Below are positions 10,421 to 43,959 of a DNA stretch of 44,252 nt, piece by piece; position 1 is the first letter of the stretch, and each line of letters opens with the position of its first letter. Source of the stretch: Pirellulales bacterium (GTDB taxonomy: Bacteria; Planctomycetota; Planctomycetia; Pirellulales; JAICIG01). Below the pieces are notes generated by a model that was not told where the DNA came from, searched no databases, and saw only the letters and a program-made list of their open reading frames with translations. The stretch covers positions 1 through 44,252 of the forward strand of contig DASVHB010000067.1 of the NCBI GenBank assembly GCA_036379195.1, written 5' to 3'. The position numbers and the translations under genes are program-made.

Positions 10421-10451
10421 AACCTCTGCCTCAGCCACCTGTCGCTTCACA

Positions 10452-10510: not shown

Positions 10511-10558
10511 TATGGGGCGCGCTGTTCGGCGGCTGCGCGAGTGGGCGCGCAATGCGGG

Positions 10559-16252: not shown

Positions 16253-19200
16253 ATGCCCCCAGACGTTTTGCGCGACTTTGCCAGGCAACTTTTTCCGTCC
16301 GACGTGACCACGCTGCCCGACGTGCTCGCTTGGCGCGCCCGCTGCCAGCCACACCAGCGGGCATTCACCTTTCTGGTCGACGGCGAGGAGCAGGAAGAGC
16401 AATGGACCTACGCTCAGCTAGACCGCCGGGCGCGCGCCATCGCCGAGGTGCTCATCGCAAATGACGCCGCGGGTGAGCGCGCGCTGTTGGTCTACGACGC
16501 GGGGCTGGAGTATATCGCCGCGCTGTTTGGCTGCCTCTATGCCGGCGTGGTGGCCGTGCCGGTCTATCCGCCCGACCCGTTTCGCATGGACCGCACGCTG
16601 CCGCGGCTGCAAGCTATCTTGGCCGACGCCGGGGCGGCCTGGCTGTTGGCGACACGCGAAACGCTCGACTGGGCCGGGCCGCTGTTTGCCAAGGCGCCGG
16701 GGCTGAAATCGTCGTTGGCGACGGACGAATGCCACGCAGCCGAGTGCCACGAAGCCGAATGCGCAGTGCGGAGTGCGGAGTGCGGAACAGAGGCCGACTC
16801 GCTGGCGATTTTGCAGTACACATCGGGTTCGACCGGCGATCCACGCGGCGTGATGATTTCGCATCGCAACCTGATGGCCAACCTCACGCTCATCCATCGG
16901 ATGGTCGATCGCGACGATGCGGTCGCCGTCTCTTGGCTGCCCGCCTATCACGATATGGGCCTGATCGGCGTCACGTTTCAGCCAGTTTTCAGCGGGCGGC
17001 ACGCCGTGCTGCTTTCGCCGGTGGCGTTTATGCAGCGGCCCTATCGTTGGTTGAATGCGATCTCACGATTCCGCGGCACAACGACCGCCGCTCCGAACTT
17101 CGCCTACGATCTGTGCGTTCGCAAGGTGAGCGCGGCGGAACGCGCGACGCTCGATCTGAGCAGCCTGGTGCTGGCGCTCAACGGGGCCGAAGCGGTCCGG
17201 GCCGACACACTGGATCGGTTCAGCGAAGCCTTTGCGCCGTGCGGTTTTCGCCGCGAGGCGTTCTATCCCTGCTATGGACTGGCTGAAGCCACGCTGATGG
17301 TCAGCGGCGGCGCCAAGAACGAGCTTCCAATCGTCAAATGGTTCGACGCCGCCGCGCTGGAGCACAATCGAGCGGAACCGCTTAGCACTGATCTCGCGCC
17401 CGAGGTAGCCCCCGGCCTTGTGCCGGACATGGTAGCCCCCGGCCTTGTGCCGGGCTTGTCTGGAATAACACCCATTACGCCGGCCGCAAGGGCCGGGACT
17501 ACGAGCCCGATCGCTGCATCGGACGCGAGGGCGGGGGCCACCCGGTTGGTTGGCAGTGGTCACGCGGCATGTAGCCAGCGCGTGGTAATCGTCGATCCGC
17601 GGACATTACAGCCATTGCCCGAGTGCCAGGTGGGTGAAATCTGGGTGAGCGGGCCGAGCATCGGCGAAGGCTATTGGAACCGGCCGCGCGAATCGGTCGA
17701 AACCTTCGCCGCGACGTTGCCAAACGGTGACGGGCCGTTTCTGCGCACCGGCGACCTCGGTTTTCTGGACGGTGGCGAGCTGTTCATCACAGGGCGGCTG
17801 AAAGACCTCATTATCCTGCAAGGCCGCAATCATTATCCTCATGATCTTGAGCAAACCGTGGCTGGCTCGCATCCGGCGCTAAAGCTCGACGGCGGCGCGG
17901 CTTTCTCCGTCGATGTTTCCGGGCAAGAGCGGCTGGTCATCGTGCAAGAAGTGATGCGTCCGCGCAAAGTCGATCTGCCAGCGGTTGCCGAGACCATCCG
18001 CGCGCGCATCGCCGAATCGCACGGTGTCGCCGCTTCGGCCATTTGCCTTATTCCCGCCGGTACGCTGCCCAAGACGTCAAGCGGCAAGACACGGCGGAGT
18101 GCTTGCCGCGAGTTCTTTCTGGCGGGTTCGCTGGGCGCGGTCTTTGAGTGGTGCGAAGAAGAGTGGCGGATGGACGGTGAGGAATCAGCAGCAGAGGCCG
18201 TCTCCAAATTGACAGCCCCGCCGAACACGCCGACCGAGTGCCGATTGGCGCAGATTTGGAGCGACGTGCTCGGGCTCGATCCGCCCGTAGGTCAGGCTTT
18301 CCAGCCTGACAGCGTGGGTCTTGGGCAAAGTCAGGCTGGAAAGCCTGACCTACGGCACTGCGACATCCACACCAGCTTTTTTGACGTCGGCGGCCAATCA
18401 TTGCTGGCGTCGCAGTTGGCCGCGCGGATTCAAGCCGAGTTTGGCGTTGAAATGCCGATTCGCGTGCTGTTCGAGTCGCCGACGATTGCTCGGCTGGCCG
18501 CCTGGCTCGATGGCGCCGATCGGCAAATGCCTGCGGCTGATCTGCCGCCCCTGAACCGCGCCGACCGGGCCGCGCCGCTGCCGCTGTCGAGCTTTCAAGA
18601 ACAACTGTGGTTTTTGGAGCAGCTTGAACCGGAGCCACGTTATCTGCTCTCGGCCACGATGCGGCTGCGTGGGCCGCTCGATCGGGCGGTTCTCGAACGA
18701 AGCCTCAGTGCCATCGCCACGCGGCACGAAGCGCTTCGCACCGTGTTTTGTGAGCGCGACGGTCTGCCATTTCAGGTGCTACGCGACGTAGGGTGGGCCG
18801 ACAACGTAGCTCCGACACTCCGTGGCGGAGATCTCGGGTCGCCCTTGGCGACCGCGGTTCTCGTCACGGAGTGCCGGGACTACTTTGATCTCTCTCATGG
18901 CCCTTTGTTGCGCGCTTCGCTGGCTTGCATAGATGCCAACGAGCATTTGCTGACGCTGACCATTCATCACCTCATCTGTGATGGCTGGTCGCTGAGCATC
19001 TTTCTTGAGGAACTTGCCGCGCTGTATCACGCTGAAGTCACTCGGCAGCCGGCGAATCTTCCGCCAGTGCCGCTACACTACGCCGATTTTGCCGTCTGGC
19101 AACGGCGCTGCCTCGCCACCCAGCACGTTCAACGGCAGCTCGACTATTGGAAGCAGCAACTCGCAGACCTGACGCCCTTAGAACTCGCTACAGATTTTTT

Positions 19201-22200
19201 GCCAGCGCGGTGGCCGGGGCAGAGCCTAAGCGATGCCCCGGATGTTGCCAGCAGGGGCATTGCCGATTCCGCAGTTCTGAGAGAGAACAAGCCGACTTCC
19301 TATCGCGGCGCCGAGGAGCGGTTCACGATCGGAGAGGAACTAACCGACGCGCTGGCCAGCCTCGGCCATCAACATGATGCGACGCTTTACATGGTCTTGC
19401 TGGCGGCCTTCCAAAGCCTGCTGGCGCGTTGGACTGGCCAACACGACGTGTGCGTCGGCTCACCGATTTCTTACCGGCCGCGCCGCGAGTTCGAGCGCTC
19501 GATCGGATATTTCGTCAATACGCTGGCGCTGCGCACCGATTTATCGGGCGATCCCAGCTTTCGCGAACTGTTGGCGCGGGTGCGCGAAACCGTGTTGGCC
19601 GCTTTCACGAACGCCGATGCGCCGCTGACCGCCATTGTCGATGCCTTGGCGCCGCAGCGGGCCGAAGGCCGCTCGCCGCTTTTCAACGTGATGTTTGTCT
19701 TTGAAAACCTGCCCTGGCAAGGCGACGACGCCGCGGGCCTCTCGATCGGCGACGTGAAAATCGACCATTCGCGAATTGGCGGCTTTGATGTGGCACTGGT
19801 CGTCGAACAACAGGCAGCCAGCTTGAACGCTTCGGTCATTTACAATGCCGAGCTTTTTGAGCCGGCCACCATCGAGTCATTTTGCAACGCGTTCAAGCTT
19901 TTGTTGGCGGGCGTGGCCGCTCAACCCGGTGCCCCGGTAACTTCGCTGATGCTGGCCGACGAAGCGTCGCACGTCTTCCACCCGCCCGCTGCCCCGCTGC
20001 AAAAATTATCTGCTCCGATCCATGATCTGGTTTCCGAGCAAGCCAACCGCGCGCCCGAGGCCACGGCCATCGTTCATGGCGATCGGCAGATCACGTATCA
20101 AGAGCTTGAGCGGCGCGCGGACCAGTTAGCCCACTACCTGCACGCGCTAGGCGTGACGCGCGACATGCCGGTGTCAATTTTTCTGGATCGCTCGATCGAG
20201 ATGGTGGTGGCCGTGCTGGCGGTGCTTAAGTCGGGCGGGGCCTATGTGCCGCTCGATGCCGCCGAAAACAGCGAACGGTTGACGGCGATGCTCGACAACG
20301 TCGCGGCACGGGCCATCATTACCACCAGCCGCACCGCCGATCGCTTGCCGCATCACCGGGCCGAAGAAATCTTGCTTGACGCCCATGCGGAGTCCATCGC
20401 GCAAGCGCCGCGGCAGCCGCTGGCGGCGGGGATCGGCCCCGATAACCTGGCATACATTATCTACACGTCAGGCTCCACGGGTCGCCCCAAGGGGGTGGAA
20501 GTCACCCACGCGGGGCTGGCCAATCATGCTTGCGCCATGGCGTCGCTGTACGAGCTTGGCCCAAGCGACCGAGTGCTGCAAATTATTTCGCCCGCTTTCG
20601 ATGTGGCCGCCGAGGAGATCTTTCCCACGCTTCTTCGCGGAGGCGCCTTGGTGCTTGGTCCGGCGACGAACGAACTGACCGGTCGGGCAATCCTCGATCA
20701 GTGCCGGCGGAGCCGCGTATCGGTGGCCCACATCCCCCCGCCGCTTTTGCAGCAGTGCTTACTGGAGTGGGAAGCCGCCGATGCGCCGCTGTTCGACCAT
20801 TGGCGGGTGCTGGTGGTGGGCGGCGAGCCACCGCGTACCGAGATGCTCAACCAATGGCTGGTGCTTGCCGCCGGACGCGTCCGCCTGTTGCACGAATATG
20901 GCCTGACCGAAACGACCATCACCAGCCTGGTGTATGAAGTGCCGCGCAGTGTTACGGCGTGGCCCGAAAACCGCCGCCTGCCGATTGGCGCACCCATCGC
21001 CGGGGCCGAGGCTTGGGTGCTCGACGCGCATCGGCGGCCTGTGCCGGTCGGAGCGCCGGGCGAGCTCTACTTGGGCGGCGTGGGACTGGCGCGCGGATAC
21101 TATCGACTCGACGACCAAACAGCCGAGCGGTTTGTACCGCATCCGCTTTCGCAACAGCCCGGTGCGCGGCTTTATCGCACGGGCGACCTCGTGCGTCGCC
21201 GCGCTGATGGCGATCTGGAGTTTTTGGGCCGGATCGACGAACAAATCAAGCTTCGCGGCTGGCGCATCGAGCCGCGGGAAATCGAACGAGCGATCCTTGC
21301 GCATCCCGCGGTGGGCCAGGCGGCCGTCGTCGCCCGCGAAGACGCGCCCGGCGCCAAGCGGCTGGTGGCTTATGTGGTGTCAGCCAACGGCGAAATGCCC
21401 TCGCCGCAAGAGCTACGCCAGTGGCTGCGCGGCAAATTGCCCGAACCGATGGTTCCCTCGGCGGTGGTGCGTCTTGCGCATCTGCCGCTCAACCGGCATC
21501 ATAAGCTCGACGTGGCCGCGTTACCGGCGCCCAGCGCGTGCCCGGCCGAAGCGAACGGCGAGGCCATATCGTTTGCCGCGCCGCGCACCGCCTGCGAACA
21601 GCAACTGGCAACGATCTGGCAAGAGATCTTGAATCTTCCGCGCGTCGGCATTCACGACAACTTCTTCGAGCTGGGCGGAGATTCGATTCTCAGCATTCAA
21701 GTGGTGGCGCGGGCCCGGCAAGCGGGGCTTTCTTTCAATCCGCGCCAGCTCTTTCAACACCAGACCATCGCCGAACTAGCCGCGGCGGAGGGCACCGGTC
21801 CGGCGGTGACCGCCGAGCAGGGCGAAGTGTCGGGCGAAACGCCGCTGACGCCCATTCAGCATTGGTTCTTGGACAGCGATCCGATTGACCCGCACCACTT
21901 CAATCAGGCCGTGATGCTGCAAGTTGACGATCGCCTATCTGCCGACGTGCTGGCGGCGCTCGATCATCTGGCATCGCATCACGACGCCTTACGACTGCGG
22001 TTCGCTCGTGACGAACATGGTTGGCGGCAGTGGCACGCACCGGTCGCGGGAAGCTGGTCGCTGGAACGGTTCGACTTTTCGCAGTTACCCGCCGACGAAC
22101 AGATCGCGGCGCTCGAACGCTCGGCCTCGGCGATGCAGGGCGGCCTGCATCTGGAAAACGGTCCATTGGCACGGGCGGGCTGGTTCGATCTGGGCCCGCG

Positions 22201-23242: not shown

Positions 23243-23250
23243 AAGCACGC

Positions 23251-23997
23251 TCACTTCGCGGGGGCAGGCCGCTTCGATTTTTCTCGCTCGGCCGCTTTGC
23301 GATCGCGATAATCCGCCAGCACGCCTTCGGGATCATCGTTAAACAAGTCGCGGCAGCCGGTGCAGCAGACAAAATACTTCTTGCCCTGGTACGAGACCTC
23401 GATCGTCCCCAATCCGCCGGTAACCACGCACTCAGGCCCGCCGGAACCTTTGGCGAACGACGCATCGCGGCGCGTGTAACCAACTTCGGCCAGCCGAGCG
23501 AAACGGCCATCGCCGGGCAGACGCTTTTCGTAAAGCACCAGCATCCGGTCGTCGTCGGCCACGGTGCGGATGCTAATGCGGGCCGGCTCGTCCGGGGCGG
23601 AGTCGCTTTTGGACAACAGCACCAACTGTCCGTTCTTGTCGATCTCTCCCAAAAAGCGCATTTCGCCCTCGGTATCGCGGCGCTGCACCATCAGCACAAA
23701 GGTGCTTTGCTCGTCACCAGGCAGCAGCTTGCCGGACGAAAAATACTTGCCCTCAGGCGTCTCGAACACCAGGGAGGCGCGGCCCGCTTCAAACTTCCAG
23801 GCCCACTGAGCTTGCTCGGTCCAAGCGCCCTGGCTCGAGCCGCGACGCGGCTGGCCGACTCCCTTCCAGCTTCCAACATAGGCCTGGAGCGGCGCCAGCG
23901 CGGCCTTGTCGGCGCCGACCTGATCTGACGGCGTCGACTCTGCGTGGGTTGGCAAGGCGAGCAAGAGCAAACAACCGATATCTAACGAAAGGTTCAT
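23251..23997 (-). CDS. secreted protein with C-terminal YHS/TRASH-like Cys-rich (putative metal-binding) domain
   Basis: 248 aa counted from MNLSLDIGCLLLLALPTHA/ES, a Sec-type signal. The C-terminus ECVVTGGLGTIEVSYQGKKYFVCCTGCRDLFNDDPEGVL resembles the YHS pattern (Cxx..Y.G..YYFCS..C...F...P). The 93-codon upstream ORF extension was rejected. The stop lies 9 nt from the NRPS-1 stop, in convergent orientation. Confidence 0.5.
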   Translation of the reverse strand: MNLSLDIGCLLLLALPTHAESTPSDQVGADKAALAPLQAYVGSWKGVGQPRRGSSQGAWTEQAQWAWKFEAGRASLVFETPEGKYFSSGKLLPGDEQSTFVLMVQRRDTEGEMRFLGEIDKNGQLVLLSKSDSAPDEPARISIRTVADDDRMLVLYEKRLPGDGRFARLAEVGYTRRDASFAKGSGGPECVVTGGLGTIEVSYQGKKYFVCCTGCRDLFNDDPEGVLADYRDRKAAEREKSKRPAPAK

Positions 23998-24165
23998 CGC
24001 CAGCCTCCTCGAAGAAGTTCGATGCCTACGCTCAGTATAACGGGGCCGGCGCGACGGCAGTAGCCGCGACGTGCAACGGATTTTTGGCCGCCTGTTGAAA
24101 CCATCGCTTGTAACGCGGAGGCCGATTTTCTGCACTTTCTTGTAAAAACAGCTTGGCGCGTTAGG

Positions 24166-25905: not shown

Positions 25906-25923
25906 GCCAATCAAGTGCGTTTT

Positions 25924-25958: not shown

Positions 25959-25998
25959 GACATTTATCACCATTGGTGGTAAAATTACCACATGGTGA
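25957..25998 (+). promoter_or_regulatory. near-consensus sigma70-type promoter (TTGACA-17-TAAAAT) with nested palindromic operator, overlapping the start codon of the AbiEi-like gene
   Basis: The -35 TTGACA is at 25957-25962, followed by a 17-nt spacer and TAAAAT at 25980-25985. The inner palindrome is gtggtaa (25976-25982) with ttaccac (25985-25991). The outer arms are tcaccat (25967-25973) and atggtga (25992-25998). The ATG at 25992 lies 7 nt after the -10, which implies a leaderless transcript. Confidence 0.55.
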
Positions 25999-27134: not shown

Positions 27135-27931
27135 TAAAACCGTTTGACAACGCGGTGGCCGCAAGCCGTGCCGTACTCATCGAGGCGATGGGAGTCCTTG
27201 GCAGATTGCATTCGCACCTCGTCATCATCGGCGGCTGGGTACCTGAGTTGCAAATACCCGGCAAAGGACACCCCGGTTCGCTCGACGTAGACTTGGCAGT
27301 TGATACTCGATCTTTGCCACCGGGGCCATACTCAACAATACGCCGATGTTTGGTTGATGCGGGATATCAGCAAGGAAACATGCCGAGCGTTTTTTTGCGC
27401 CAGATTCCGGGAACGTCGGGACCGTTTCAAGTCAAACTCGATTTGGTTTGCGCCGAGCCAGCTACCGCAATGGAACCTGAGACCGGGCTGCGCGTGCAGG
27501 ATCTCATGATCCATCCGCTTCGCGGGATCGGAATCGCGCTTGATTCGTGCGACGAAGTCCGCATTGATGGCGAGCGGCCCGATGGCGCCTCTGACGCCGT
27601 CGTGGCGCGCATCGCAACCTTAGAAGCATTCATTTGCATGAAAGCGTTCGCGATGGCCGAACGTCGAAAACCCAAAGACGCGTATGACGTTTACTTCTGT
27701 CTGCGACACCGCAACCTCGATCAGCTTTCCACCGCGATCAACTTGATCAGCAGCCAAAGCATCGTACGCGAAGCGATTGACGTGTTGGCAGATAAGTTCC
27801 GCACAATAAACCACGCGGGCCCCATCGACGCCGCGACCGTTGCGCAGGAGCACGGTGATGATTACGAGCAATCGCGCCGCGGTGCGTTCGAACTCATGCA
27901 ACTTTTGCTCGAGCGCATCAAGAACGTTTAA
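27131..27931 (+). CDS. nucleotidyltransferase, AbiEii/AbiGii-toxin-like (DUF1814-type) family
   Basis: 266 aa. The NTase signature is IIGGWVPEL..HPGSLDVDLAVD (GG..x..S-x-D-x-D). A later acidic site is KLDLVCAE. The family-typical motif KPKDAYDVYFCL is present. The GTG start overlaps the upstream stop (gtga, 27131-27134). Confidence 0.5.
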   Translation: MIKPFDNAVAASRAVLIEAMGVLGRLHSHLVIIGGWVPELQIPGKGHPGSLDVDLAVDTRSLPPGPYSTIRRCLVDAGYQQGNMPSVFLRQIPGTSGPFQVKLDLVCAEPATAMEPETGLRVQDLMIHPLRGIGIALDSCDEVRIDGERPDGASDAVVARIATLEAFICMKAFAMAERRKPKDAYDVYFCLRHRNLDQLSTAINLISSQSIVREAIDVLADKFRTINHAGPIDAATVAQEHGDDYEQSRRGAFELMQLLLERIKNV

Positions 27932-36900: not shown

Positions 36901-39900
36901 CAGCAGCGCGACGATCAGCTCGATCGAACGCTCCAACAGCAGGCCGACGCGCGTCTCGGCACCAACGCCCAACGATCGCAGGTAATGCGCGAGCTGGTTT
37001 GCCCGGCGGTTCAATTCGCCGTAGGTCAGCGACTGATTGCCAAAGAGCAGGGCGATGGCTTCGGGGCGCCGCGCGGCCCGCTCGGCAAATAGCTCATGCG
37101 CGCACTGCTCGCGCGGGTAATCGCAGGCGGTTTTATTCCAATCGATCAGCATTTGCCGGCTTTGGTCGGCGGTGAGCAGCGGCAGGCGAGCGATCGACGT
37201 TGTTGGGTCATCGGCGATCGCCTCCAGCATCGTCTGAAAATGTCCGGCCCAGCGGATGACGGTTTCGCGATCCAAAAGGTCGCTGCTGTACTCCCAACTG
37301 GCTTGCAATCCGTCCATGGTTTCGCGCAGCGAAAGCGTTAAATCGACCTTTGCTGCGCCGGTGGTGATCTCCAGCGGGCGAATGCTCATGCCCGGCTCAT
37401 CGAACGCCGGCCATGGTGTGTTTTGCAACGCGAACATCACCTGAAACAGCGGCGTACGCTGAGTGTGTCGCTCGGGCTGAAGATGTTTGACCAGGTATTC
37501 GACCGGTAGTTCCTGGTGGGCGAAGGCGGCGAGAGTGGTTTCTTTGACACGCCGCAGCAGCGCTTCAAAAGTCAGGCCCGTATTCGCGGTTTCACCAACC
37601 GGGGTTTCCGTACCGACTGCATGGTCGCGGAGATCGATAGGCAGGACGAGCGTATTGACGAACAGTCCGATCAGGCTCTCCAGCTCGCGGCGCAAACGCC
37701 CGGCGACGGGTGTTCCCAGACAAAAACGATCCTGGCCGCTCAATCGTCCCAACAGCGTCTCGAACGCCGCGAGCAACGTCATATAGAGCGTCGCATCGTG
37801 TTTGCGGCTCAGTTGTTCGAGACGGTCGACCAGGCGGCGCGGGATGACGGTGGTCCATTGGCCACCCTGCCCGCTGGGTAAGGGCGGTCGCGGACGGTCT
37901 GTCGGAAGCTCCAGCCATTGCGGCACGCCATCGAGCGCCTTCGTCCAGAAATCGAGATTTTTCTGCCGCGCTTCGCTCGCACCGGCGCCGCGTTGCCAGA
38001 CGGCATAATCGGCGTACTGCACGGTCAACGCGGGCGCCGGCAGGTCGCGGCCCGCGGCGTGCGCCTTGTATCCGTCGAGCAACTCGCGCAGCAGCAGACC
38101 GAGCGACCAGCCATCGGCCACCAGGTGATGCAGCACCAGCACAAAGACATGTCGCTCGTCGGCGAGCCGCACCAACTGCGCGCGAGCCACCGGTGCGGCG
38201 CCCAGATCGAACCGCTGGCGTGCGGCGGCCTGTGCCAGCCGTTCGACCTCGTCGCTTTGCTCCGGCGGCGCTAAATGAGCAAGATCAACGATCGGCAGAG
38301 GCAACTCCACCGCGTCGGCGATGGTGTGCACAGGCCGCCCATCGCGCTGGAAAAACCGCGTGCGCAGCGATTCGTGCCGGGCCACAAGCCGCTTCAGGCT
38401 GGCGCGCAAAGCATCGATGTTGAGCAAGCCGGTGAGCTCGACTGCCAGCGGAATGTGGTAGCAGGGACTGTCAGGCTCAAGTTGTTCGAGAAAGAACAAC
38501 CGCTCTTGCGCGAACGACAGGGGCATTTCGTCCTGTCGATCGGCGATCGGAATGGGCCATGCCCAGGTCGGGTCATTGGTGCGCGAATCGCAATCGAGGG
38601 CGGGCGAGTCCGAGTCGATCGCGCGGGCCAGACGCGCAATGGTTGGTTCCTCGAACAATCTGCGCAGCGGTATCTCGGCCCGGAAGCGTTCGCGCAGCCG
38701 GGTCATAAGCTGCATCGCCAGCAGCGAATGTCCGCCCAGATCGAAAAAGTTATCGTCGATGCCCACCCGCTCGACGCCCAGCAGCTCGGCCCATAGATCG
38801 GCCAACGCCGCTTCGGTGCTACTGCGTGGGGCGACATAAGCGTGCAGGGCGACTGCGGCGCCGGTTGGCTGGGGCAGTGCGCGGCGATCGAGCTTGCCAT
38901 GAGGCGTCAATGGCAGCGCGTCGAGCGTCACGAAGGCGGCCGGCAGCATATATTCGGGCAACCGTGCCTTTAGCCAATCGCGCAGCTCGGCGTGGCCATT
39001 CTGTTCGCCGTGTCGTGGCACGATGTAAGCCACCAGGCGTTTGCCGCCCGGGCCGTTCTCGCGGGCCACGACCGCCGCCTCGCGCACATGCGGATGCCGC
39101 GCGAGATGCGTTTCAATCTCACCCAGCTCGATGCGGAAGCCGCGAATCTTGACCTGTTGATCGAGCCGCCCCAGATACTCCAACTCGCCGTTGGCGCGCC
39201 AACGCACGCGGTCGCCAGATCGGTAGAGCCGATGGTCGCCATTCACATCGCGCTCGCGCGTGCTTTCGCGGAGCGAAAGCCGACTTTGCTCAAAAGGGCT
39301 GGCGATGAATCGCTCGGCGGTCAGATCGGGCCGGTTGAGATAACCTCGTGCCAGACCCATCCCGCCGAGGTAGAGCTCGCCCGGCACGCCGATAGGCACC
39401 GGTTGTCTTTGTCCGTCGAGCACGAAAACCCGGCAGCCGGGCAGCGGCCGGCCAATGGGGCTCGCCGCCGGACGCAGCAGGTCTGCGCAGGTCAGCGGCC
39501 GCCAGGTGGAAACGATCGCGGTCTCGGTGATGCCATACATGTTTACCAGCAACGGCTTGGCATCGCCGTGCCGATCGAACCAGCCTGACAACGCGGCAAC
39601 GTCGAGCATTTCGCCCGCCAAGATCACCAGCCGCAAGGCCAGTCGCTCGGCGCCGGCGCCCGCTCGTTCATCGGACTGCATGAGCTGGTTGAACGCGGCG
39701 GGCGTCTGATTGAGCACGGTCACTTGCTCATCGATCAGCAATTGATGAAAGCTGTCGGCCGAGCGGGCGATGGCGCGGGGCACGACGACCAGCCGGCCGC
39801 CAAAGGCCAGCGCGCCCCACAGCTCCCACACCGAAAAGTCGAAGGCGTAGGAATGAAACAACGTCCAGATATCGCCGGGGCCAAAGTCGTAGAGCGGCCC

Positions 39901-42900
39901 GGCCGATTGCATCACGGCGACGACCGCCGCGTGACTGACCATGACGCCCTTGGGCTTGCCTGTCGACCCCGATGTGTATATGACATACGCCAGGCGCTCG
40001 GCATCTGTGATCGGCGGAAGGTTTTCGCAGCCTTGCAACGCGAGTTGATCGTCTGCTTCGTCCAAGCAAACGATCGGTCCAGAGAAATCCCCCAGCCGTT
40101 CGGCGAGTGGTCGCTGCGTGAGCACAAGGGTCGGGCTGGCGTCGGCAAGCATCTCTTGCAGTCGCTCGGCAGGCAAAGCCGGGTCGAGCGGCACATAGGC
40201 CGCGCCTGATTTCAGGGCGCCGAGAATTGCCACTACGGTATCGAGGGAGCGCTCGAGGCAAATGGCGACGAGGACGTCAGATTTTGGATTTTCGATTTTA
40301 GATTTTCGATTTCGACGAAGATGCCACGCGAGCCGGTTCGCTCTTTTATTTAGCTCCCGGTACGAGAGCTTCCGGCCTTCGAACACCACGGCAATGGCGT
40401 CGGGCGTTTGGGCGGCCTGCCGCTCAAACAGCTCGTGCAGGCAGCACGGCATTGTCGCCTTTCGCTCCGCGCAAGTAGCGCCGCTTTCGCGGAGCGAAAG
40501 GCGACTTTGGGCGACGTCCGCTACTTGCGCACGGCAATTTACAGGCCATCGGGTGCTCGACCAGTCCATCAATAGTCTCTGCCGCTCACTCTCTGGCATC
40601 ACGGGCAAACGCGAAACACATTGGGCCGGCTTGGCAACAGCGGCGGCCAGCAACGCCGACCAGTTGGCGATGATTCGGTCGATGGTATCGGCATCGAACA
40701 AATCGGTGCTGTATTCCAGTGTGCCCGCCAGGCGTCCACCGCGGTCGGCGAGGGCGAAGGTGAGATCGTACTTCGCCGCACCAGTGTGGATTTCGTCGAA
40801 CGCAACGCCGGGCACCGACGGCAGCGGCGTGTTCTGCACCACCAAAGCCACTTGGAACAATGGTGAGCGGCTGGCGTCGCGTGTGGCCGCGAATTCCTCG
40901 ACCAGCCGCTCGAACGGCACTTCCTGCTGATCGAACGCGGTCAGCGCAGTTTGCTTGGCGCGCTGCAAGAGCTGCTCGAAGCTCGGATCGTCTGACAGGT
41001 CGGCCCGCAGCGGCAGCATATTCACAAAGAAGCCGACCAGCGGCTCGAATTCGGGCCGAGCGCGATTGGCCGCGGCGGCGCCGAGGCAGAAATCGGTCTG
41101 CCCGGTATAGCGGTGGAGCAGGGCCTGCAGCGACGCCAGCAAAACCACAAACGGAGTGGCGCCGCTGTCGCGGGCAAGCGCCTCGATCTGCGAAGTCAAT
41201 TCGGTCGACAGTTCGATGGGGTGCGTCGCCCCGCGATAAGTCTGCGCAGCGGGCCGCGGCCGATCGGTCGGCAATTCCAGCGGCGGCGGATCGTCTACCA
41301 GTTGCCTCCGCCAATAGACCAATTGTGCTTCCGTCTGGGCTATCGCCTCCGCCGAGCGTTGCCACGTCACATAGTCGAGATATTGGAGGGGCAGTGGCGG
41401 CAGGGGCGGAGGAAGGTCGAGCAACTGGGCTTGATACACCTGCCAAAGCTCGCTCAGCAGCACGCCCATCGACCAGCCGTCGGCGATGATGTGGTGCATC
41501 GCTAACAACAGACGGTGGTCATCGTCGGCTAGTTGCAGCCAGATCACCCGCCATAGAGGGCCTTGCGCCAGATCGAACATGCGACGCGCTTCCGCATCGA
41601 TGTGCTCGCCAGCGATCCGTTGCCGATCTTCCGGCGGCGAATCGCGCAAGTCGATTTCCGCCAGCGTAGGCAATTGCCACGGGTGAATCATCTGAACTGG
41701 GCCGTTTTCGGTGCGGGCGAAGGTGGTGCGCAGCGATTGGTGCCGGTCGGTGATGGCCAGCAGGCTGCGCCACATGGCGTCGCCGTCGAGCGGTCCGGCG
41801 ACTCGAACGGCCACACTCAAGTGGTTGAGAGAGCTTTCCGGCGCCAGCTCGTCCATAAAATACAAACGCTGCTGCGCGAACGAGAGCGGCGCCTGGCTTG
41901 GGCAGTTCGACGTGGCAAGCGGAGTTGTCGCGCGGCTGCATTGTTCGCGCGGCGCCGCATCGATCTCGGCGGCCAGCGACGCGATCGTTGGCGAACGAAA
42001 TAGCGCCGCCAGCGGTAAATCGATCTGCCACTGGCGGCGAACACGGGCGACGAGCTGCGTGGCCAGCAACGATTGGCCGCCATGCTCAAAAAAGTTGTCG
42101 TGAATGCCCCGGGTATCGTTTTGCAGCACTTCGCGCCACAGTTCCAACAGCCGCGCTTCCGTCTCGGTGCGCGGCGCAGCAGGTTGGCCCGCGCCGTCCA
42201 ATGCCGAGTGATGAGTCTCAGCCCGCCACTGGTAGAGCGGCTCAAGCTGCTCCTCAAGAAACAACTGGCGACAGGCGCGGCGCTGCACTTTGTGGCTGGT
42301 GGTGCGCGGCAACGAGCCGGAGCGGATCAGCGCAATGGCAAACGGCGGCACGTCGTGCTCCGACAATACCGCCTGGCGAATCGCGGCGAACACCTCTTCG
42401 AGGTTGGTATTCTTGGGCGTGCGTTTCAGCTCTTGCACGACCACCAGACGCTCTTGGCCTTCCGCGTCGATCGAAAAGGCGGCACCCGCGTCGGACTTCA
42501 GAAGCGCGTGCGCCCGGCCGACGGTGTCTTCGATGTCCTGGGCATAAAGATTACGCCCGCAAATGATGATCTGATCTTTCAATCGCCCGGTGACGAACAG
42601 TTCGCCCGCGTGCAAGAAGCCCAAATCGCCGGTGCGCAGGTAGGGGCCGCGCCCATCGGGTAAGTATGCCCGAAACGCCTGCTCGGTTTCTTGCGGTCGG
42701 TTCCAATAGCCGGAGGCTACGCCGGGACTGCGGACCCAAATCTCGCCGATCTGCCGGGCAGACCGCTCGCTGTGCGAATCGGGATCGACGATCAGCACCT
42801 CAGTGCGGGCCAAACACCGGCCGGAGCTGACCAGCGCGCGTGTCGGTCGGCCGTTGATGCCCACCACCGCCCGGTGTCGCGAGAGGGCGCTGATCTCGAA

Positions 42901-43959
42901 CCGTTCGACCACCGGTCCGCCGGCGAGCGAGGCTCCGCCCGTGACGCCGAGCGTCGCCTCGGCCAGGCCATAACACGGCACAAAGGCCTCGCGCCGAAAG
43001 CCAAATGGACCGAAGGCTTCGACAAACCGCTCGAGCGTCTCATGCCGCACGGCTTCGGCTCCGTTGAGTACGATCGCCAGACTCGACAGATCGAGCTGGC
43101 GCCGCTCGTCGGGCGAAATCTTCCGCACGCACAAGTCGTAAGCGAAGTTAGGGCCGCCAATGATCGTGCCACGATAGCGCGTCACCGCGGCCAGCCAGCG
43201 CCAGGGCCGCTGGACGAAGGCCAAAGGCGACATCGAGATGGTGCGGCTGCCGCTGTACATCGGCAGCAAAACGGCAGCCACCAGCCCAAAGTCGTGATAC
43301 ATGGGTAGCCAAGTGACGCCGACGGTGCGACTGCCCTGGCCACGCTCGATCTGAGCCACGTTGTGCCACAGATTGCTGTGGTCGATCATTACCCCGCGGG
43401 GCGCGCCGGTCGAGCCGGACGTGTACTGCAGATAGGCCAGGTCTTCGGCCGATACTGCCACGGGCGTCCAATCGCCGGGTGAGACGCTAAGTTCATCGGT
43501 GGCGAGCAGACGCAGGTTGCCGGCCAGGTCGGCCAAGAGCGGCTCGAACCATGCCAATCCCGCCGAACTGCCGAGCACCAACGCCGCCTGGGCATCGGCA
43601 ATCATTGCCTGCAGGCGCGGCAGCGTGCGGTTCAATCGCAATGGTTCGGGCGGGAAGGCGGGAACGGCCACCATGCCGGCGTAGAGGCATCCGAAAAACG
43701 CCGCCACGTATTCCAGGCCCGGCTCATAGAGCAGCAGAATTCGGTCGCCCGGCGCGGCCCGCTGCTGCAACGCCGCTGCGATGGTGCGGGCCCGGCGATC
43801 GAGCGCCGCATAGGTGAAATGCCGCTCCTCCGCTTCGCCATCGACCAGGAAGGTATACGCAACCGTATCAGCTTGCTGCCGCGCCCGCTGGCGCGCTAGC
43901 GCGACGATGTTTTCCGCAACACTGGCGGGGCCTTCGACTTGACGCAACACGGAAGACAT
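27928..43959 (-). CDS. non-ribosomal peptide synthetase NRPS-2: FAAL - T - (C-A-T)x3 - E - C - T - TE (terminal module has no A domain)
   Basis: This is a single 5343-aa ORF. Anchors are given in plus-strand coordinates. FAAL: YTFLVDGEAEE..FTYAALD, LEYVAAFFGCLYAGMVAVPAFPP, and LAYLQYTSGSTGAPRG at 43381-43440. T0: FFEHGGQS (Ser 42070-42072). C1: MHHIIADGWS, about 41462-41500. A1: YTSGSTGKPKG, about 39950-40000. T1: GGHS (Ser 38725-38727). C2: LHHLVADGWS, about 38101-38140. A2: YTSGSTGRPKG, about 36635-36685. T2: GGHS (Ser 35455-35457). C3: LHHIVADGWS, about 34845-34885. A3: YTSGSTGIPKG, about 33361-33410. T3: GGDSI (Ser 32203-32205). E: IHHLVVDTVSW, about 31561-31605. C4: PLSPLQMGMLYH and THHHLLLDGWS, about 30100-30150. 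T4: FFELGGDSI (Ser 28852-28854). TE: GWSFGG (Ser 28456-28458). Confidence 0.92.
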   Translation of the reverse strand: MSSVLRQVEGPASVAENIVALARQRARQQADTVAYTFLVDGEAEERHFTYAALDRRARTIAAALQQRAAPGDRILLLYEPGLEYVAAFFGCLYAGMVAVPAFPPEPLRLNRTLPRLQAMIADAQAALVLGSSAGLAWFEPLLADLAGNLRLLATDELSVSPGDWTPVAVSAEDLAYLQYTSGSTGAPRGVMIDHSNLWHNVAQIERGQGSRTVGVTWLPMYHDFGLVAAVLLPMYSGSRTISMSPLAFVQRPWRWLAAVTRYRGTIIGGPNFAYDLCVRKISPDERRQLDLSSLAIVLNGAEAVRHETLERFVEAFGPFGFRREAFVPCYGLAEATLGVTGGASLAGGPVVERFEISALSRHRAVVGINGRPTRALVSSGRCLARTEVLIVDPDSHSERSARQIGEIWVRSPGVASGYWNRPQETEQAFRAYLPDGRGPYLRTGDLGFLHAGELFVTGRLKDQIIICGRNLYAQDIEDTVGRAHALLKSDAGAAFSIDAEGQERLVVVQELKRTPKNTNLEEVFAAIRQAVLSEHDVPPFAIALIRSGSLPRTTSHKVQRRACRQLFLEEQLEPLYQWRAETHHSALDGAGQPAAPRTETEARLLELWREVLQNDTRGIHDNFFEHGGQSLLATQLVARVRRQWQIDLPLAALFRSPTIASLAAEIDAAPREQCSRATTPLATSNCPSQAPLSFAQQRLYFMDELAPESSLNHLSVAVRVAGPLDGDAMWRSLLAITDRHQSLRTTFARTENGPVQMIHPWQLPTLAEIDLRDSPPEDRQRIAGEHIDAEARRMFDLAQGPLWRVIWLQLADDDHRLLLAMHHIIADGWSMGVLLSELWQVYQAQLLDLPPPLPPLPLQYLDYVTWQRSAEAIAQTEAQLVYWRRQLVDDPPPLELPTDRPRPAAQTYRGATHPIELSTELTSQIEALARDSGATPFVVLLASLQALLHRYTGQTDFCLGAAAANRARPEFEPLVGFFVNMLPLRADLSDDPSFEQLLQRAKQTALTAFDQQEVPFERLVEEFAATRDASRSPLFQVALVVQNTPLPSVPGVAFDEIHTGAAKYDLTFALADRGGRLAGTLEYSTDLFDADTIDRIIANWSALLAAAVAKPAQCVSRLPVMPESERQRLLMDWSSTRWPVNCRAQVADVAQSRLSLRESGATCAERKATMPCCLHELFERQAAQTPDAIAVVFEGRKLSYRELNKRANRLAWHLRRNRKSKIENPKSDVLVAICLERSLDTVVAILGALKSGAAYVPLDPALPAERLQEMLADASPTLVLTQRPLAERLGDFSGPIVCLDEADDQLALQGCENLPPITDAERLAYVIYTSGSTGKPKGVMVSHAAVVAVMQSAGPLYDFGPGDIWTLFHSYAFDFSVWELWGALAFGGRLVVVPRAIARSADSFHQLLIDEQVTVLNQTPAAFNQLMQSDERAGAGAERLALRLVILAGEMLDVAALSGWFDRHGDAKPLLVNMYGITETAIVSTWRPLTCADLLRPAASPIGRPLPGCRVFVLDGQRQPVPIGVPGELYLGGMGLARGYLNRPDLTAERFIASPFEQSRLSLRESTRERDVNGDHRLYRSGDRVRWRANGELEYLGRLDQQVKIRGFRIELGEIETHLARHPHVREAAVVARENGPGGKRLVAYIVPRHGEQNGHAELRDWLKARLPEYMLPAAFVTLDALPLTPHGKLDRRALPQPTGAAVALHAYVAPRSSTEAALADLWAELLGVERVGIDDNFFDLGGHSLLAMQLMTRLRERFRAEIPLRRLFEEPTIARLARAIDSDSPALDCDSRTNDPTWAWPIPIADRQDEMPLSFAQERLFFLEQLEPDSPCYHIPLAVELTGLLNIDALRASLKRLVARHESLRTRFFQRDGRPVHTIADAVELPLPIVDLAHLAPPEQSDEVERLAQAAARQRFDLGAAPVARAQLVRLADERHVFVLVLHHLVADGWSLGLLLRELLDGYKAHAAGRDLPAPALTVQYADYAVWQRGAGASEARQKNLDFWTKALDGVPQWLELPTDRPRPPLPSGQGGQWTTVIPRRLVDRLEQLSRKHDATLYMTLLAAFETLLGRLSGQDRFCLGTPVAGRLRRELESLIGLFVNTLVLPIDLRDHAVGTETPVGETANTGLTFEALLRRVKETTLAAFAHQELPVEYLVKHLQPERHTQRTPLFQVMFALQNTPWPAFDEPGMSIRPLEITTGAAKVDLTLSLRETMDGLQASWEYSSDLLDRETVIRWAGHFQTMLEAIADDPTTSIARLPLLTADQSRQMLIDWNKTACDYPREQCAHELFAERAARRPEAIALLFGNQSLTYGELNRRANQLAHYLRSLGVGAETRVGLLLERSIELIVALLAVSKAGGCYVPLDLDNPAQRLADIIADADPALILSNNSESRIQNTKSLDLSLAADEIALQPSDDPQPLAGAENLAYFMYTSGSTGRPKGIAVPHRAIVRLVWPMNYCPIDDHDVFLHASPSSFDASTFEIWGALARGATLAIAPPGTPEIGKLIDNHRVTVLWLTAALFHALVDEDLESLAGVRRLLAGGDVLSPSRVRRFVERFPECTLINGYGPTEGTTFSCCHTVGLDDPLDGSVPIGRPIDNTQAYVLDENLQPAPVGVPGELYLGGDGLAREYWKLPELTAERFITVKARLYKTGDRARWRADGLLEFLGRLDQQVKLRGFRIEPAEIESQLLRHPQICQAAVVACPDASGGNRLIAFIVPGSSIEGNSPAGAMGSLDIPALRSWLEDVLPGYMIPASFIELATLPLSPHGKLDRSALAARVGDVSTQFARLGEPLADSHRSPRTETEAALTAIWQELLGVEHVGIDDNFFDLGGHSLLAMRVTARVRDQFQIDLPLRRLFETPTIASLAAWLEAGAEQQLGAASGPIAGAAHDSPWPLSFAQERLYFLNQLAPASPMYNIAAAAMLDGSLDAHALQAALQQLIDRHEILRTRFEQRAHGLVQEAIAPLTIDLPVSDLRDLPDEAQTAELERLAGVEARRPFDLAAPPLLRARLLRMNERRHALVLVLHHIVADGWSLGILVGELAALYQARCRGGTAELAPLSVRYADYAVWQRQALDGGALESDLEFWEAALRDMPRALELPADRPRPAAASGRGGEVVSTLPATLVNDLRRLARRGEATLYMTLLAGFELLLGRLSGQERFCLGTPVAGRTRPELEHLIGLFVNTLVLPVDLADGGTSTFETLLERVKQTTLAAFAHQQLPLEKLVDRLQPKRELDRGPLFQVMFALQNSPLPERTFAELSLRPVHVASGAAPFDLTLSLRETGESIEALWQYNSDLFDRETMVRWANHFQTLLTSIVNRPGAPIDEIELLSRDELRQIALAGNDTTRLYPADFVHGQFAEQAARRPDAAALVYGEQLLTYGELNRRANQLAHYLQSRGVGPETCVAIALERSMEMIVAVLGVLKAGGAYLPLDLNYPDERLRFMLDDARPAFVLCHNRKSEIQSLESARWLGQSLGDAPAEMATGACSPIDFGSISAELAQQSTDNPALRAAEHHLAYVIYTSGSTGIPKGVAVEHGSWANLAHAQRDLFLQTTDDRVLQFAPLSFDASVWEISLALASGAALVLSSPEALLPGEPLVQLLRDRRVTIATLPPSILAALPPAELPDLRLIISAGEACRAELVRQWGQGRRFVNAYGPTETTVCATAADCPANEPRPPIGRPLPNVRVDVLDARGRPVPIGVPGELYVGGAGVARGYLNQPELTAERFIDHRLSLRESTHLPGVGVGEARFYRTGDVVRWRPDGQLEFLGRADQQVKIRGFRIEPGEIEAVLRRHPAVREAAVVTREEQPGQPRLFAYVVSAGDNVSVAGLREYLRSQLPGYMAPASLILLDELPLSAHGKLDRAALPAPARHGGGSSDGPREPVSETEQALVEIWRQVLGLEQVGIDDNFFELGGDSIQTLAVVSHARQRGIFFTPRQLFEQPTIAGLAAVASASSAIDAEQGIVMGDVPLTPIQRWFFDTVGWASPTTAPFGETDESVSSAHPTILSQEVLVEVTDTIDASLLEQALTVLVLHHDALRLRLYRAGDGWRQVNAGVEVLSTAFWLEQADQRGLSAAAAEADTQRLLARLRARFDFESGPLVAAAIITTDGASRLLLTIHHLVVDTVSWRIILEDLLTAYRQLAAREPVRLPPKTTSLRQWALRLADYARQNNFAAHQAYWHDLLAAPAGRLRCDFAEGFHEHASATFERTLSSDETAALGELASLYRMPTQDLVLAIVGHALRPLTGDDLMIDIEHHGRDSGRFEAVDLSRTVGWFTSLYPVRLDFAGAASPGESLLRVKPSLRESSARGFEYGVLRYLSHGDTKVPRSPAEICFNYLGQHRQMGQPAALHSRGNDLAQVLTIAADRDQDGQDAAAPRPYLIEVTAEIRNGRLMLRWTYRRNRLRDVALERVAARFVATVRELMSGQPDARVQATPGDFPLARLDDAALARLVGEGRDIEDIYPLSPLQMGMLYHSLAEQPLAAEAASEVHGGGAYIEQLSCRLSGPLDVAAFRQAWRTVIERHTALRTALEWGGLREPLAIVQRHVELPWQDDDWSKYSEREQAARLETLLHDDRRRGFDLAIAPLLRLKLIRLSADEWRLVWTHHHLLLDGWSLPLLLNELMLAYECHAHGQRSLPLPPSRPYRDFIAWLARQDVSRAERYWRDLLRGVTEPTRLCFEAGESTQTRSASEAEMRRASLARRVGAGGATAAADIAPGSAEAHFAIHRHTTRAAAAFARRHQITLNTLLQGAWALVLARHAGSDDVVYGTTMAGRPGTLAGADSMVGLFINTLPVRARLPRESFVVDWLRSLQGQLAETRHHEQTPLASIRRWSELPPGVPLFESLWVFENYPIDAALRSAHAALRPATERAPANREATLGHLRLSEIESRSQTNFPLNVVVSAGDEIALRINYDARRFELADIERLAADYQETLACILNSGQRRLSELPCLCSEQNPWHSVEGGSTSRVSAQDATESVPHRSPSTDLTKSSRSACHRAPRTETERLLADLWRDVLRLDRVGVEDDFFELGGDSIQAVRVMSLAAAQGRIFPPQMLFERPTIAALAAAIDGTIPAGNRADGAPGIVPIRTGGTRIPLVGIHPVGGMVFPYYALARHLGADQSFYAIQSRGLSGGDPHQQIEAMAADYLDQLRTALPTGRFQLAGWSFGGIVAYEMARQIAATGERQPRLILIDSGIDSVGGAAPDAGMAALLGLYGAADRRSLAELESLSDDERLRYFTAQISAAGLAPAHLPDADARRLLSVFEANARAGLAYRPRPAPVQAVLLRSEEHTERNGRDPSLGWKSLLEGGLEIESLPGNHLTLLREPHVRALAERLERIVS
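29840..29898. repeat. family B REP-like copy, in frame in the last C domain (C4) of NRPS-2
   Basis: The arms ccaacccgacgcgcaagcgagg (29840-29861) and cctcgcttgcgcttcgggtttg (29877-29898) each match the intergenic arms at 10452/10489 at 20/22. The loop is also 15 nt. The element encodes ..TQTRSASEAEMRRASLARRVG.. Confidence 0.8.
31940..32010. repeat. two family A hairpin units, in frame at the T3-E junction region of NRPS-2
   Basis: The two units are gggtgggcgctgctcacc (31943-31960) and ggtgggcgatgcccatcctac (31990-32010). On the coding strand they read VGWASPT...VSSAHPT, the same VGW..SAHPT reading as the intergenic unit at 1223-1262. Confidence 0.7.
32743..32761. repeat. family D element (degenerate copy), in frame in A3 of NRPS-2
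   Basis: gctttctctaagcgaaagc. It encodes RLSLRES in the loop preceding the YRTGD motif. Confidence 0.6.
33516..33541. repeat. family C REP-like core, in frame in A3 of NRPS-2
   Basis: The reverse complement ggggcagagccttggcgatgccccgg matches the NRPS-1 copy (19216-19241) at 24/26. It encodes GQSLGDAPA, compared with GQSLSDAPD in NRPS-1. Confidence 0.75.
33554..33588. repeat. imperfect heptamer tract (GATTYTN)x5, in frame in A3 of NRPS-2
   Basis: gattcta gactttg gatttcg gattttc gattgtg. This is an AT-rich patch in a GC-rich ORF. It encodes HNRKSEIQSLES. Confidence 0.8.
36761..36795. repeat. imperfect heptamer tract (GATTYTN)x5, in frame in A2 of NRPS-2
   Basis: gattttg tattctg gattctc gattctg aattgtt. 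It encodes NNSESRIQNTKS. Confidence 0.8.
39262..39280. repeat. family D palindrome GCTTTCGC-GGA-GCGAAAGC, in frame in A1 of NRPS-2
   Basis: gctttcgcggagcgaaagc has 8-bp arms. It encodes SRLSLRES in the loop before YRSGD. Confidence 0.8.
40280..40314. repeat. heptamer tract (GATTTTN)x5, in frame in A1 of NRPS-2
   Basis: gattttg gattttc gatttta gattttc gatttcg. It encodes RNRKSKIENPKSD and replaces the usual GVxxE loop between the A1 and A2 core motifs. Confidence 0.85.
40454..40505. repeat. family D extended copy: perfect 18-bp inverted repeat, in frame in the C1-A1 linker of NRPS-2
   Basis: gtcgcctttcgctccgcg (40454-40471) and cgcggagcgaaaggcgac (40488-40505) are exact reverse complements with a 16-nt spacer. 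The element encodes SRLSLRESGATCAERKAT. Confidence 0.85.

Follow-up and report, generated by a model that had tools for sequence, protein, structure and literature searches.

Do two giant biosynthetic genes that face each other on one contig form a single assembly line, or are they two lines that happen to be neighbors? This question is raised by a 44,252-nucleotide stretch of DNA from a Pirellulales bacterium (GenBank assembly GCA_036379195.1, contig DASVHB010000067.1, positions 1 to 44,252; hereafter, the window), part of a planctomycete genome with a G+C content in the window of about 63–65%. The window encodes two nonribosomal peptide synthetases (NRPSs), which we call NRPS-1 and NRPS-2, each beginning with a fatty-acyl-AMP ligase (FAAL). 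A first-pass annotation of this DNA, made from the sequence alone, had read the pair as a candidate orphan lipopeptide system of twin synthetases. The part of that proposal that concerns orphan, FAAL-primed NRPSs was borne out, whereas the single twin system found little support, as no relative shows synteny of the two genes and their FAALs are not sister sequences. We consider it probable, though far from secure, that the locus holds two independent FAAL-primed lines whose adjacency is functionally meaningless. Both would follow one blueprint, FAAL-T-(C-A-T)n-E and then DCL-T-TE, in which T is a carrier, C a condensation, A an adenylation, E an epimerization and TE a thioesterase domain, DCL is a C domain specific for a D-configured donor, and the last module lacks an A domain (A-less).

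Two intact synthetases with a common blueprint

NRPS-1 and NRPS-2 are convergent, uninterrupted open reading frames (ORFs), both intact, and the first-pass annotation had placed them exactly. Their domain strings come from Pfam, run on the full-length proteins as well as on overlapping segments, together with a scan for NRPS core motifs. NRPS-1 reads FAAL-T-C-A-T-E and lacks a release domain, whereas NRPS-2 reads FAAL-T-(C-A-T)x3-E-C-T-TE. Domain E-values reached 1e-166 in the Pfam scans of the two synthetases, which excludes chance for the domain assignments. The catalytic signatures are intact in both proteins: HHxxxDG in all C domains, HHxxxDxVSW in both E domains, the serine in all carriers, and motifs A3, A7, A8 and A10; the TE of NRPS-2 retains GWSFG. 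With C, A, T, E and TE domains in module order and their core motifs preserved, the two genes encode modular type I NRPSs. The domain order proposed earlier was correct for both, and the position written as "(X)" in the proposed NRPS-2 product proved to be a true A-less module in the Pfam and motif scans.

Each synthetase carries its own lipo-initiation unit

The N-termini of NRPS-1 and NRPS-2 are paralogous, as had been noted before, with 48% identity over 733 aa and 55% in the ligase domain alone. Both ligases have the ANL fold (Pfam AMP-binding, 3e-69 and 7e-66) and a DIP2-like C-terminal subdomain, and their alignment shows YTSGSTGxPxGV, YGLAE, GDLG and the catalytic lysine. The top matches in the PDB were all FAALs, namely 7r7f (olefin-synthase loading, 7R7E-G; 2e-156), 3KXW, FadD32, FadD23 and FadD28, and the alignment to 7r7f was ungapped through the FAAL-specific insertion region. 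FAAL families of NCBIfam (PRK05850, PRK12476, FadD32, FadD21, FadD28) scored 298–436 bits on the N-termini; classic FadD/FACL acyl-CoA ligase models scored at most 172 bits, and PRK07768, a model labeled CoA ligase, reached 309–338 bits on both. The spacing between motifs A5 and A6 is 75 aa in the NRPS-2 FAAL and 120 aa in that of NRPS-1, including an extra 45-aa insert, compared with 48–54 aa in the four amino-acid A domains of the two synthetases; the longer spacing provides the FAAL-specific extra loop of about 20 aa that is to be expected. Judged by these sequence features, both N-terminal ligases were verified as FAALs rather than acyl-CoA ligases. Transfer of the acyl group to a carrier, not to CoA, is predicted from the GGQS carrier fused directly downstream of each FAAL.

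The PDB matches, the NCBIfam scores and the A5–A6 spacing thus agree with the earlier reading of FAAL hallmarks followed by a GGQS carrier and then a C domain in each synthetase. The FAAL insertion is present in both N-termini, and each gene has its own FAAL-T lipo-initiation unit in cis. We rejected a special "starter" status for the first C domains, which are 40–42% identical to internal C domains and have nearest relatives that follow A-T units; both are ordinary LCL-like domains.

FAALs fused to NRPS modules are common and documented, Planctomycetota included (PMC12820801). The FAALs of NRPS-1 and NRPS-2 are not each other's closest relatives. The NRPS-2 FAAL is 50–53% identical to those of the NRPS-1 family and equally to NRPS FAALs from other phyla, and a recent twin duplication of the FAAL-T unit was rejected on this ground.

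NRPS-1 belongs to a Pirellulales family with a C-T-TE release unit

An exact look-up of the NRPS-1 protein in public assemblies returned no record, and the best matches to it came from Pirellulales metagenome-assembled genomes (MAGs). One orthologue is 73% identical and about 15 more are 51–57% identical, with lengths of 2170–2330 aa and an identical Pfam string. Catalytic motifs are kept across the 13 orthologues that were aligned, and so is the C-terminal tail, GGFTPSDFPLA..ELDKLSxLLG(D/E), which ends the protein. The specificity code is likewise conserved in this aligned family, as DVEHVGE(I/V)TK (ten), DVEEVGEVTK (one) and DAEHLGAITK (three). The NRPS-1 family is conserved across Pirellulales.

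Such a tail, when it follows an E domain, serves as donor in a communication-mediating (COM)-type interaction with a protein that starts in a D-specific C domain. NRPS-1 itself ends in such a COM-donor-like tail, and no release unit for it was found within the window. To see what accompanies NRPS-1 elsewhere, we inspected nine orthologue contexts, covering neighbors within 10 kb, which represent seven distinct and unrelated neighborhoods. Six of these (L001/L002, L003, L004, L005/L006, L009 and L011) hold no other NRPS within 10 kb of the NRPS-1 orthologue, and the neighbors of these solitary genes differ between the six. In the DAEHLGAITK subgroup (L010, L012 and L013), the next gene, 4–6 nt downstream on the same strand, encodes a C-T-TE protein of 839–884 aa without an A domain. 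These partner proteins start with MSxPKLKNVEDIYALTGMQQLMLVH, a DCL/COM-acceptor-like motif, and their N-terminus is the counterpart of the junction between E and the fourth C domain (C4) of NRPS-2, GRDIEDIYPLSPLQMGMLYH.

A profile scan of metagenome contigs with the partner proteins revealed further arrangements. In L014, one ORF of 3105 aa encodes FAAL-T-C-A-T-E-C-T-TE, with 49% identity to NRPS-1 across the full length of the latter, and L015 is a stand-alone C-T-TE gene among non-NRPS genes. When complete, the NRPS-1 family thus combines FAAL-T-C-A-T-E with DCL-T-TE, which may be fused, adjacent or dispersed; here it is presumably dispersed. An NRPS-2-like gene was absent within 10 kb in all seven contexts, and the proposal that NRPS-1 and NRPS-2 are one twin system was not upheld.

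Several other genes recur beside NRPS-1 orthologues. An Sfp-type phosphopantetheinyl transferase (PPTase) lies 2.5–4.5 kb upstream in L010 (2052-4025), L012 (2089-4160) and L013 (780-2758) and is also found upstream in L003 (1032-1739), so that its distance from the orthologue ranges over 2.5–8 kb in the four contexts. In three of these four, the PPTase is followed by an S49 peptidase; the window has neither. A WD40 gene, a fusion of FAAL, acyl carrier protein (ACP) and alpha-oxoamine synthase, and a GNAT-like gene come after the orthologue in L004 (16967-23472), L005 (16684-23084) and L006 (10934-17334). The fusion protein is 1177–1180 aa long and occurs in two or three Pirellulales contexts, and a Kdo-hydroxylase gene lies upstream in L005/L006. 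These neighbors hint at a lipid or aminolipid neighborhood.

NRPS-2 ends in an A-less cassette that recurs across phyla

NRPS-2 follows the blueprint of the NRPS-1 family, has three elongation modules where that family has one, and is fused throughout. An A-less C-T-TE unit after an E domain is found in NRPS-2 as well as in the NRPS-1 family members L010, L012, L013 and L014. Between C4 and the last carrier (T4) of NRPS-2, the place of an A domain is taken by a linker of about 50 aa of unique sequence, with normal C-A and A-T linker motifs on either side. Because the junction is unique and the flanking motifs are normal, the absence of the A domain is a genuine feature of the architecture rather than an artifact of assembly. 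Mis-assembly was rejected on these grounds and because the architecture recurs in many independent proteins. At least 10 database proteins of about 2350–2480 aa read C-A-T-E-C-T(-TE), a distance of 355 residues separating the C motif from the serine of the carrier, and longer synthetases, such as P0296, have the same A-less ending; the cassette recurs across phyla.

The C4-T4-TE segment aligns collinearly, A-less linker included, with the partner protein of L010 (36% identity over 845 aa, E = 4e-149). At 36–39% identity to the true partners of the NRPS-1 family, it is no nearer to them than to generic NRPS C domains. For C4 and for the partner C domain, 48 of the 60 nearest C domains each follow an E domain or begin a protein, and 4 of 60 follow A-T in the case of C4. 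For C1 to C3 of NRPS-2, to which C4 is 31–33% identical, 50–53 of the 60 nearest C domains follow A-T. This contextual evidence supports the assignment of C4 and the partner C domain as D-donor specific (DCL).

The carriers of the A-less cassettes (T4 and those of the L010, L012 and L013 partners) carry GGDS(I/M), the signature usual in carriers that serve an E domain, yet here a TE follows. T4 is most similar to the third carrier, T3 (58%), and its sequence is consistent with an origin from the E-partner type of carrier.

Close relatives of NRPS-2 are few. Its N-terminal 2400 aa have a single one, P0391, a partial protein from another Pirellulales MAG (77% identity by BLAST, 80% globally), and all other matches are at most 46% identical, those with names coming from other phyla. 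Upstream of P0391, no gene is related to those of the window. For the C-terminal T-E-C-T-TE portion (1464 aa), no close relative was found in a collection of 5.8 billion proteins; GTDB species genomes yielded only a 33%-identity match, and JGI metagenomes none.

Predicted products and the charging of the A-less carrier

Specificity residues were taken by alignment to a segment of GrsA-PheA and compared with known codes. On this footing, the code of A1 in NRPS-2, DFWNIAMIVK, presumably reads Thr-like (cf. DFWNIGMVHK). We take A2, DAFWLGGTFK, to read Val (cf. DAFWIGGTFK) and A3, DAWTIAAVCK, to read Phe (cf. DAWTIAAICK), which would then be epimerized. The NRPS-1 code, DVEHVGEITK, matches no code that we know of, and its pocket is polar or charged.

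From these readings, we infer that NRPS-2 would assemble acyl-Thr-Val-D-Phe on T3. The FAAL would adenylate a fatty acid and load the first carrier, T0; C1 would N-acylate Thr; Val and then Phe would be added, and the E domain would epimerize Phe. C4 would then pass the chain, ending in D-Phe, to T4-TE, from which it would be released. We predict acyl-Thr-Val-D-Phe as the product, either alone or with one residue placed on T4 in trans, the simplest candidate being a second Phe supplied by A3. NRPS-1 would act as a loading and elongation subunit that makes a carrier-bound N-acyl-D-amino acid, and its conserved tail may dock to a C-T-TE release protein, presumably encoded elsewhere in the genome. 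Also considered was a link to the stieleriacine-type N-acyl-tyrosine pathway, which uses an N-acyl amino acid synthase, not an NRPS.

In its minimal forms, fused or split over two genes, the blueprint includes a single amino-acid A domain and no stand-alone A-T, which indicates that the cassette needs no dedicated A domain. Two mechanisms are possible. The preceding A domain may also charge the last carrier, giving a D-Phe-L-Phe end in NRPS-2 and N-acyl-D-X-L-X in the small system, or C4 may merely hand the D-configured chain to the release carrier, so that only the D-epimer is transferred. It is conceivable, although we would not expect it, that the A-less E-DCL-T-TE cassette is a distinct, uncharacterized chain ending that defines a cross-phylum family of FAAL-primed lipopeptide synthetases. 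If so, the one-module Pirellulales version would be a vertically conserved and perhaps physiological pathway to a lipo-amino acid or lipodipeptide, and NRPS-1 might in this genome even borrow the cassette of NRPS-2.

Alternatively, T4 could be charged by an unlinked stand-alone A-T protein, in the manner of SyrB1/SyrC, perhaps with a tailored residue, giving acyl-Thr-Val-D-Phe-X with an unusual X. For syringomycin, ramoplanin and enduracidin, trans-loading of an A-less terminal C-T-TE unit has been described (PMC8949500), and the linker in place of the A domain is unique sequence. The 44-kb window, however, contains no stand-alone A-T, shuttle acyltransferase or tailoring gene, and the same holds for the minimal forms of the blueprint, two-gene or fused. 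We regard trans-charging by such a protein as unlikely.

One system or two

A second alternative is that the two synthetases do form a twin system, in which NRPS-1 docks onto C4-T4-TE of NRPS-2 and the locus makes either a pair of related lipopeptides or a single branched one. In favor of this, the genes are convergent neighbors built on one blueprint, the COM-donor-like tail of NRPS-1 has no partner in the window, and the end of NRPS-2 has the architecture of the natural partner of the NRPS-1 family. Yet C4 is covalently fused to an E domain of its own, the C4-T4-TE segment resembles genuine partners no more than it does generic C domains, the FAALs are not sisters, and the genes in between are unrelated, including an AbiE-like pair of low G+C content. 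Moreover, the adjacency is seen in no relative. The seven distinct contexts of NRPS-1 hold no NRPS-2-like gene within 10 kb, and the region upstream of P0391 is likewise unrelated, which leaves the co-occurrence and synteny of a single cluster unsupported. A twin system therefore appears quite improbable to us.

Several observations temper the preferred reading of two independent lines. With a cassette of the type used by its family 4.7 kb away, NRPS-1, which has no release unit, could engage in cross-talk. The stand-alone C-T-TE partner was not seen for this organism in the window, or for any member of the DVEHVGE(V/I)TK subgroup. The contig of P0391 ends inside the gene, so the downstream context of the NRPS-2 orthologue is out of view. 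The specificity codes depend on a segment of GrsA as the anchor, and that of NRPS-1 has no counterpart known to us.

REP-like insertions in both synthetases

Both synthetases carry in-frame insertions of palindromic DNA resembling repetitive extragenic palindromic (REP) elements, similar in appearance to the in-frame palindromic elements of Rickettsia. Alignment with its orthologues reveals additional segments in NRPS-1 at aa 382-426 (FAAL), 678-702 (T0, just before GGQS) and 986-1012 (C1), and the T0 insert is a perfect 26-nt inverted repeat. Two element families have intergenic copies in the spacer between the FadL and SnoaL genes and in-frame copies in C1 of NRPS-1 and in A3 and C4 of NRPS-2 (Table 1); no copy of either family is expected by chance. 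A third hairpin occurs three times in NRPS-2, where it encodes the peptide RLSLRES within A1, within A3 and in the linker that precedes A1. The T0 and C1 inserts of NRPS-1 are shared in frame, partly degraded, with the 73%-identical orthologue, and the T0 element also occurs between genes in L010. As they are shared at this distance, the T0 and C1 inserts must be old and tolerated, which argues against reading the gene as a pseudogene.

Least likely of all is that NRPS-2, and perhaps NRPS-1, is a decaying, non-productive relic with a deleted A domain and with FAAL, T, C and A domains invaded by palindromic repeats: module 4 lacks an A domain, insertions lie in T0 and C1 of NRPS-1 and in A1, A3 and C4 of NRPS-2, and only a single close relative of NRPS-2 is known, but the 16-kb and 7-kb ORFs are still open with all catalytic motifs intact, the A-less cassette is a recurrent and conserved architecture, and all insertions lie in loops or linkers.

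Genes between and around the synthetases

The 4.7 kb between the two synthetases contain four genes. Their identification in the first-pass annotation as a YHS-type protein, a coiled-coil protein and an AbiE-like pair was confirmed, although by weak bit scores (Table 1). They do not form the "atypical cluster interior" that had been suggested; this is unrelated, non-cluster DNA. The YHS-type ORF and the beginning of the next gene share 111 nt, and the real start of this ORF is probably an internal methionine (MNLSLDIG...) followed by the signal-peptide-like stretch MNLSLDIGCLLLLALPTHA. The AbiEi and AbiEii genes are adjacent, as in an AbiE type IV toxin–antitoxin pair, and overlap by 4 nt. Their G+C content of 0.578 is the minimum of the window and their 3' end overlaps the NRPS-2 stop codon by 4 nt, and the pair is probably a mobile insertion at the end of the NRPS-2 gene.

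No PPTase, MbtH, exporter, or stand-alone A or TE gene was found in the window, every stretch of which is covered by genes with other assignments, in agreement with the earlier annotation. Upstream of NRPS-1 lie an apparent squalene/hopanoid precursor block and the further genes listed in Table 1, together with a hybrid histidine kinase, a C25 peptidase and a ComM/Mg-chelatase-like ATPase. No window gene upstream of NRPS-1 recurs beside NRPS-1 orthologues. The cytochrome P450, SnoaL-like and FadL-type genes were considered as tailoring or transport partners and rejected, as they are absent from all related contexts and the C25 peptidase and ComM-like genes intervene before NRPS-1.

Table 1 Features of the window (nucleotide positions in the window; aa, residues of the respective synthetase).
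Feature	Position	Strand	Remarks
Glycine C-acetyltransferase	33-1226		upstream of NRPS-1
HpnE-like amine oxidase, two squalene/phytoene-synthase-like (HpnD/HpnC-like) genes, IspH/LytB	1286-5585
FadL/TodX-type outer-membrane channel, SnoaL-like protein, cytochrome P450	9040-12509
Intergenic copies of two REP-like element families	10364..10519		FadL–SnoaL spacer; at 10371-10396 and 10450-10512
NRPS-1	16253..23242	+	2329 aa
NRPS-1 FAAL	16328..18133	+	aa 26-627; lineage-specific 45-aa insertion aa 382-426 (nt 17396-17530)
NRPS-1 T0	18215..18508	+	GGQS serine aa 713; 25-aa in-frame palindromic insertion nt 18284-18358
NRPS-1 C1	18578..19969	+	aa 776-1239; HHLICDGWS; LCL-like by context of nearest relatives; 27-aa REP-like insertion nt 19208-19288
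REP-like element in NRPS-1 C1	19216-19241		in-frame copy
NRPS-1 A	20033..21505	+	aa 1261-1751; code DVEHVGEITK
NRPS-1 T1	21599..21784	+	aa 1783-1844; GGDSI, the type that partners an E domain
NRPS-1 E and C-terminal tail	21833..23239	+	E aa 1861-2309; HHLAIDAVSW, EGHGR, TIGR01720; tail GGFTPSDFPLAKTDERELERISQLLGDA
Secreted protein, weak C-terminal YHS-type domain	23251..24276	-	YHS 29.9 bits, below the 30.3 cut-off
579-aa Ala/Glu/Arg-rich protein, coiled-coil-like	24166..25905	+	no family match
AbiEi_2/AbiEii-like pair	25992..27931	+	AbiEi_2 33.9 bits (cut-off 21); AbiEii 24.7 bits (cut-off 22.5)
NRPS-2	27928..43959	-	5343 aa
NRPS-2 A-less cassette	27937..30474	-	DCL-type C4 aa 4496-4956 (HHLLLDGWS), linker, T4, TE
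NRPS-2 T4	28747-28935	-	aa 5009-5071 (GGDSI)
NRPS-2 TE		-	aa 5098-5341 (GWSFG)
REP-like element in NRPS-2 C4	29838-29900		in-frame copy
NRPS-2 module 3	30679..35274	-	C3 aa 2896-3340; A3 aa 3360-3862 (DAWTIAAVCK, Phe); T3 aa 3891-3952 (GGDSI)
NRPS-2 E, module 3	within 30679..35274	-	aa 4003-4427; HHLVVDTVSW
REP-like element in NRPS-2 A3	33516-33541		in-frame copy
NRPS-2 module 2	35347..38535	-	C2 aa 1809-2271; A2 aa 2291-2770 (DAFWLGGTFK, Val); T2 aa 2808-2871
NRPS-2 module 1	38617..41895	-	C1 aa 689-1130; A1 aa 1178-1689 (DFWNIAMIVK, Thr-like); T1 aa 1718-1781
Further REP-like element sites in NRPS-2	40454-40505, 39263-39279, 32744-32760
NRPS-2 FAAL and T0	41965..43893	-	FAAL aa 23-574; T0 aa 603-665 (GGQS 627)

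Comparison with known systems

As a cluster prediction, the locus is routine, since orphan FAAL-NRPS genes are abundant in metagenomes. The evidence favors viewing NRPS-1 and NRPS-2 as unlinked members of a single, known class of assembly line, with NRPS-1 incomplete in the window. As the first-pass annotation had supposed, no characterized synthetase matches them. The best curated model is of the PvdL type (NF004282/PRK05691), and we rejected orthology to PvdL because the tested pieces reach no more than 540–579 bits against a cut-off of 4090, a likeness at the level of domains only. Both FAALs, the E domain of NRPS-1 and C4 of NRPS-2 each match this model best, at corresponding model positions. 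PvdL, the fatty-acid-primed first pyoverdine synthetase of Pseudomonas aeruginosa, begins with an acyl-AMP ligase, a carrier and C-A-T and has a T-E-DCL junction, as here. In PvdL, an A domain follows the post-E C domain and there is no TE, whereas NRPS-2 lacks that A domain and has a TE. The substrates also differ, and the window contains no pyoverdine genes.

Solved FAALs (7R7E-G, 3KXW, FadD32 and FadD28) match the window FAALs at 2e-156 to 1e-64, collinear through the insertion and with the carrier directly after. They load polyketide synthase or mycolate pathways or stand alone, however, whereas in the window the acyl carrier feeds an NRPS C domain. For NRPS-1, one-module synthesis of an N-acyl-D-amino acid that is handed to a DCL domain resembles that of ClbN-type N-acyl-D-Asn prodrug modules (C-A-T-E). 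ClbN differs in its starter C domain with acyl-CoA or acyl-ACP, its Asn code, its long downstream line and the ClbP peptidase, none of which is seen here.

The end of NRPS-2 resembles module 9 of SyrE in syringomycin biosynthesis, a terminal A-less C-T-TE whose carrier is charged in trans (PMC8949500). The SyrE system, however, includes SyrB1, SyrB2 and SyrC, whereas the NRPS-2 locus has no stand-alone A-T, halogenase or shuttle enzyme; an A-T donor encoded with the synthetase, as in the SyrE type, was found neither in the 44-kb window nor in the minimal operons. Syringomycin is also primed by a starter C domain rather than a FAAL, and the SyrE cassette does not follow a separate E domain. In architecture, on which this comparison is based, NRPS-2 also resembles MgpD of the megapolipeptin cluster in Burkholderiales, which reads C-A-T-E-C-T-TE with a DCL-type second C domain (PMC11411415). 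Its termination string, A-T-E-C-T-TE, is identical to that of NRPS-2, with an A-less last module (PMC11411415). Unlike NRPS-2, MgpD belongs to a hybrid of polyketide synthase and NRPS and lacks a FAAL.

A 2025 review of planctomycete secondary metabolism contains none of the terms NRPS, non-ribosomal, peptide synthetase or lipopeptide in its text, which suggests that no NRPS product has been characterized from Planctomycetota. Any expressed product of this locus would for that reason be new chemistry. What merits follow-up is the A-less E-DCL-T-TE cassette, along with the small system conserved in Pirellulales. The NRPS-1 family is compact (about 9 kb including C-T-TE), conserved in Pirellulales and accompanied in some genomes by a nearby Sfp-type PPTase. 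It offers a tractable system in which to study the function of an A-less C-T-TE unit after an epimerase, a question that it shares with MgpD.

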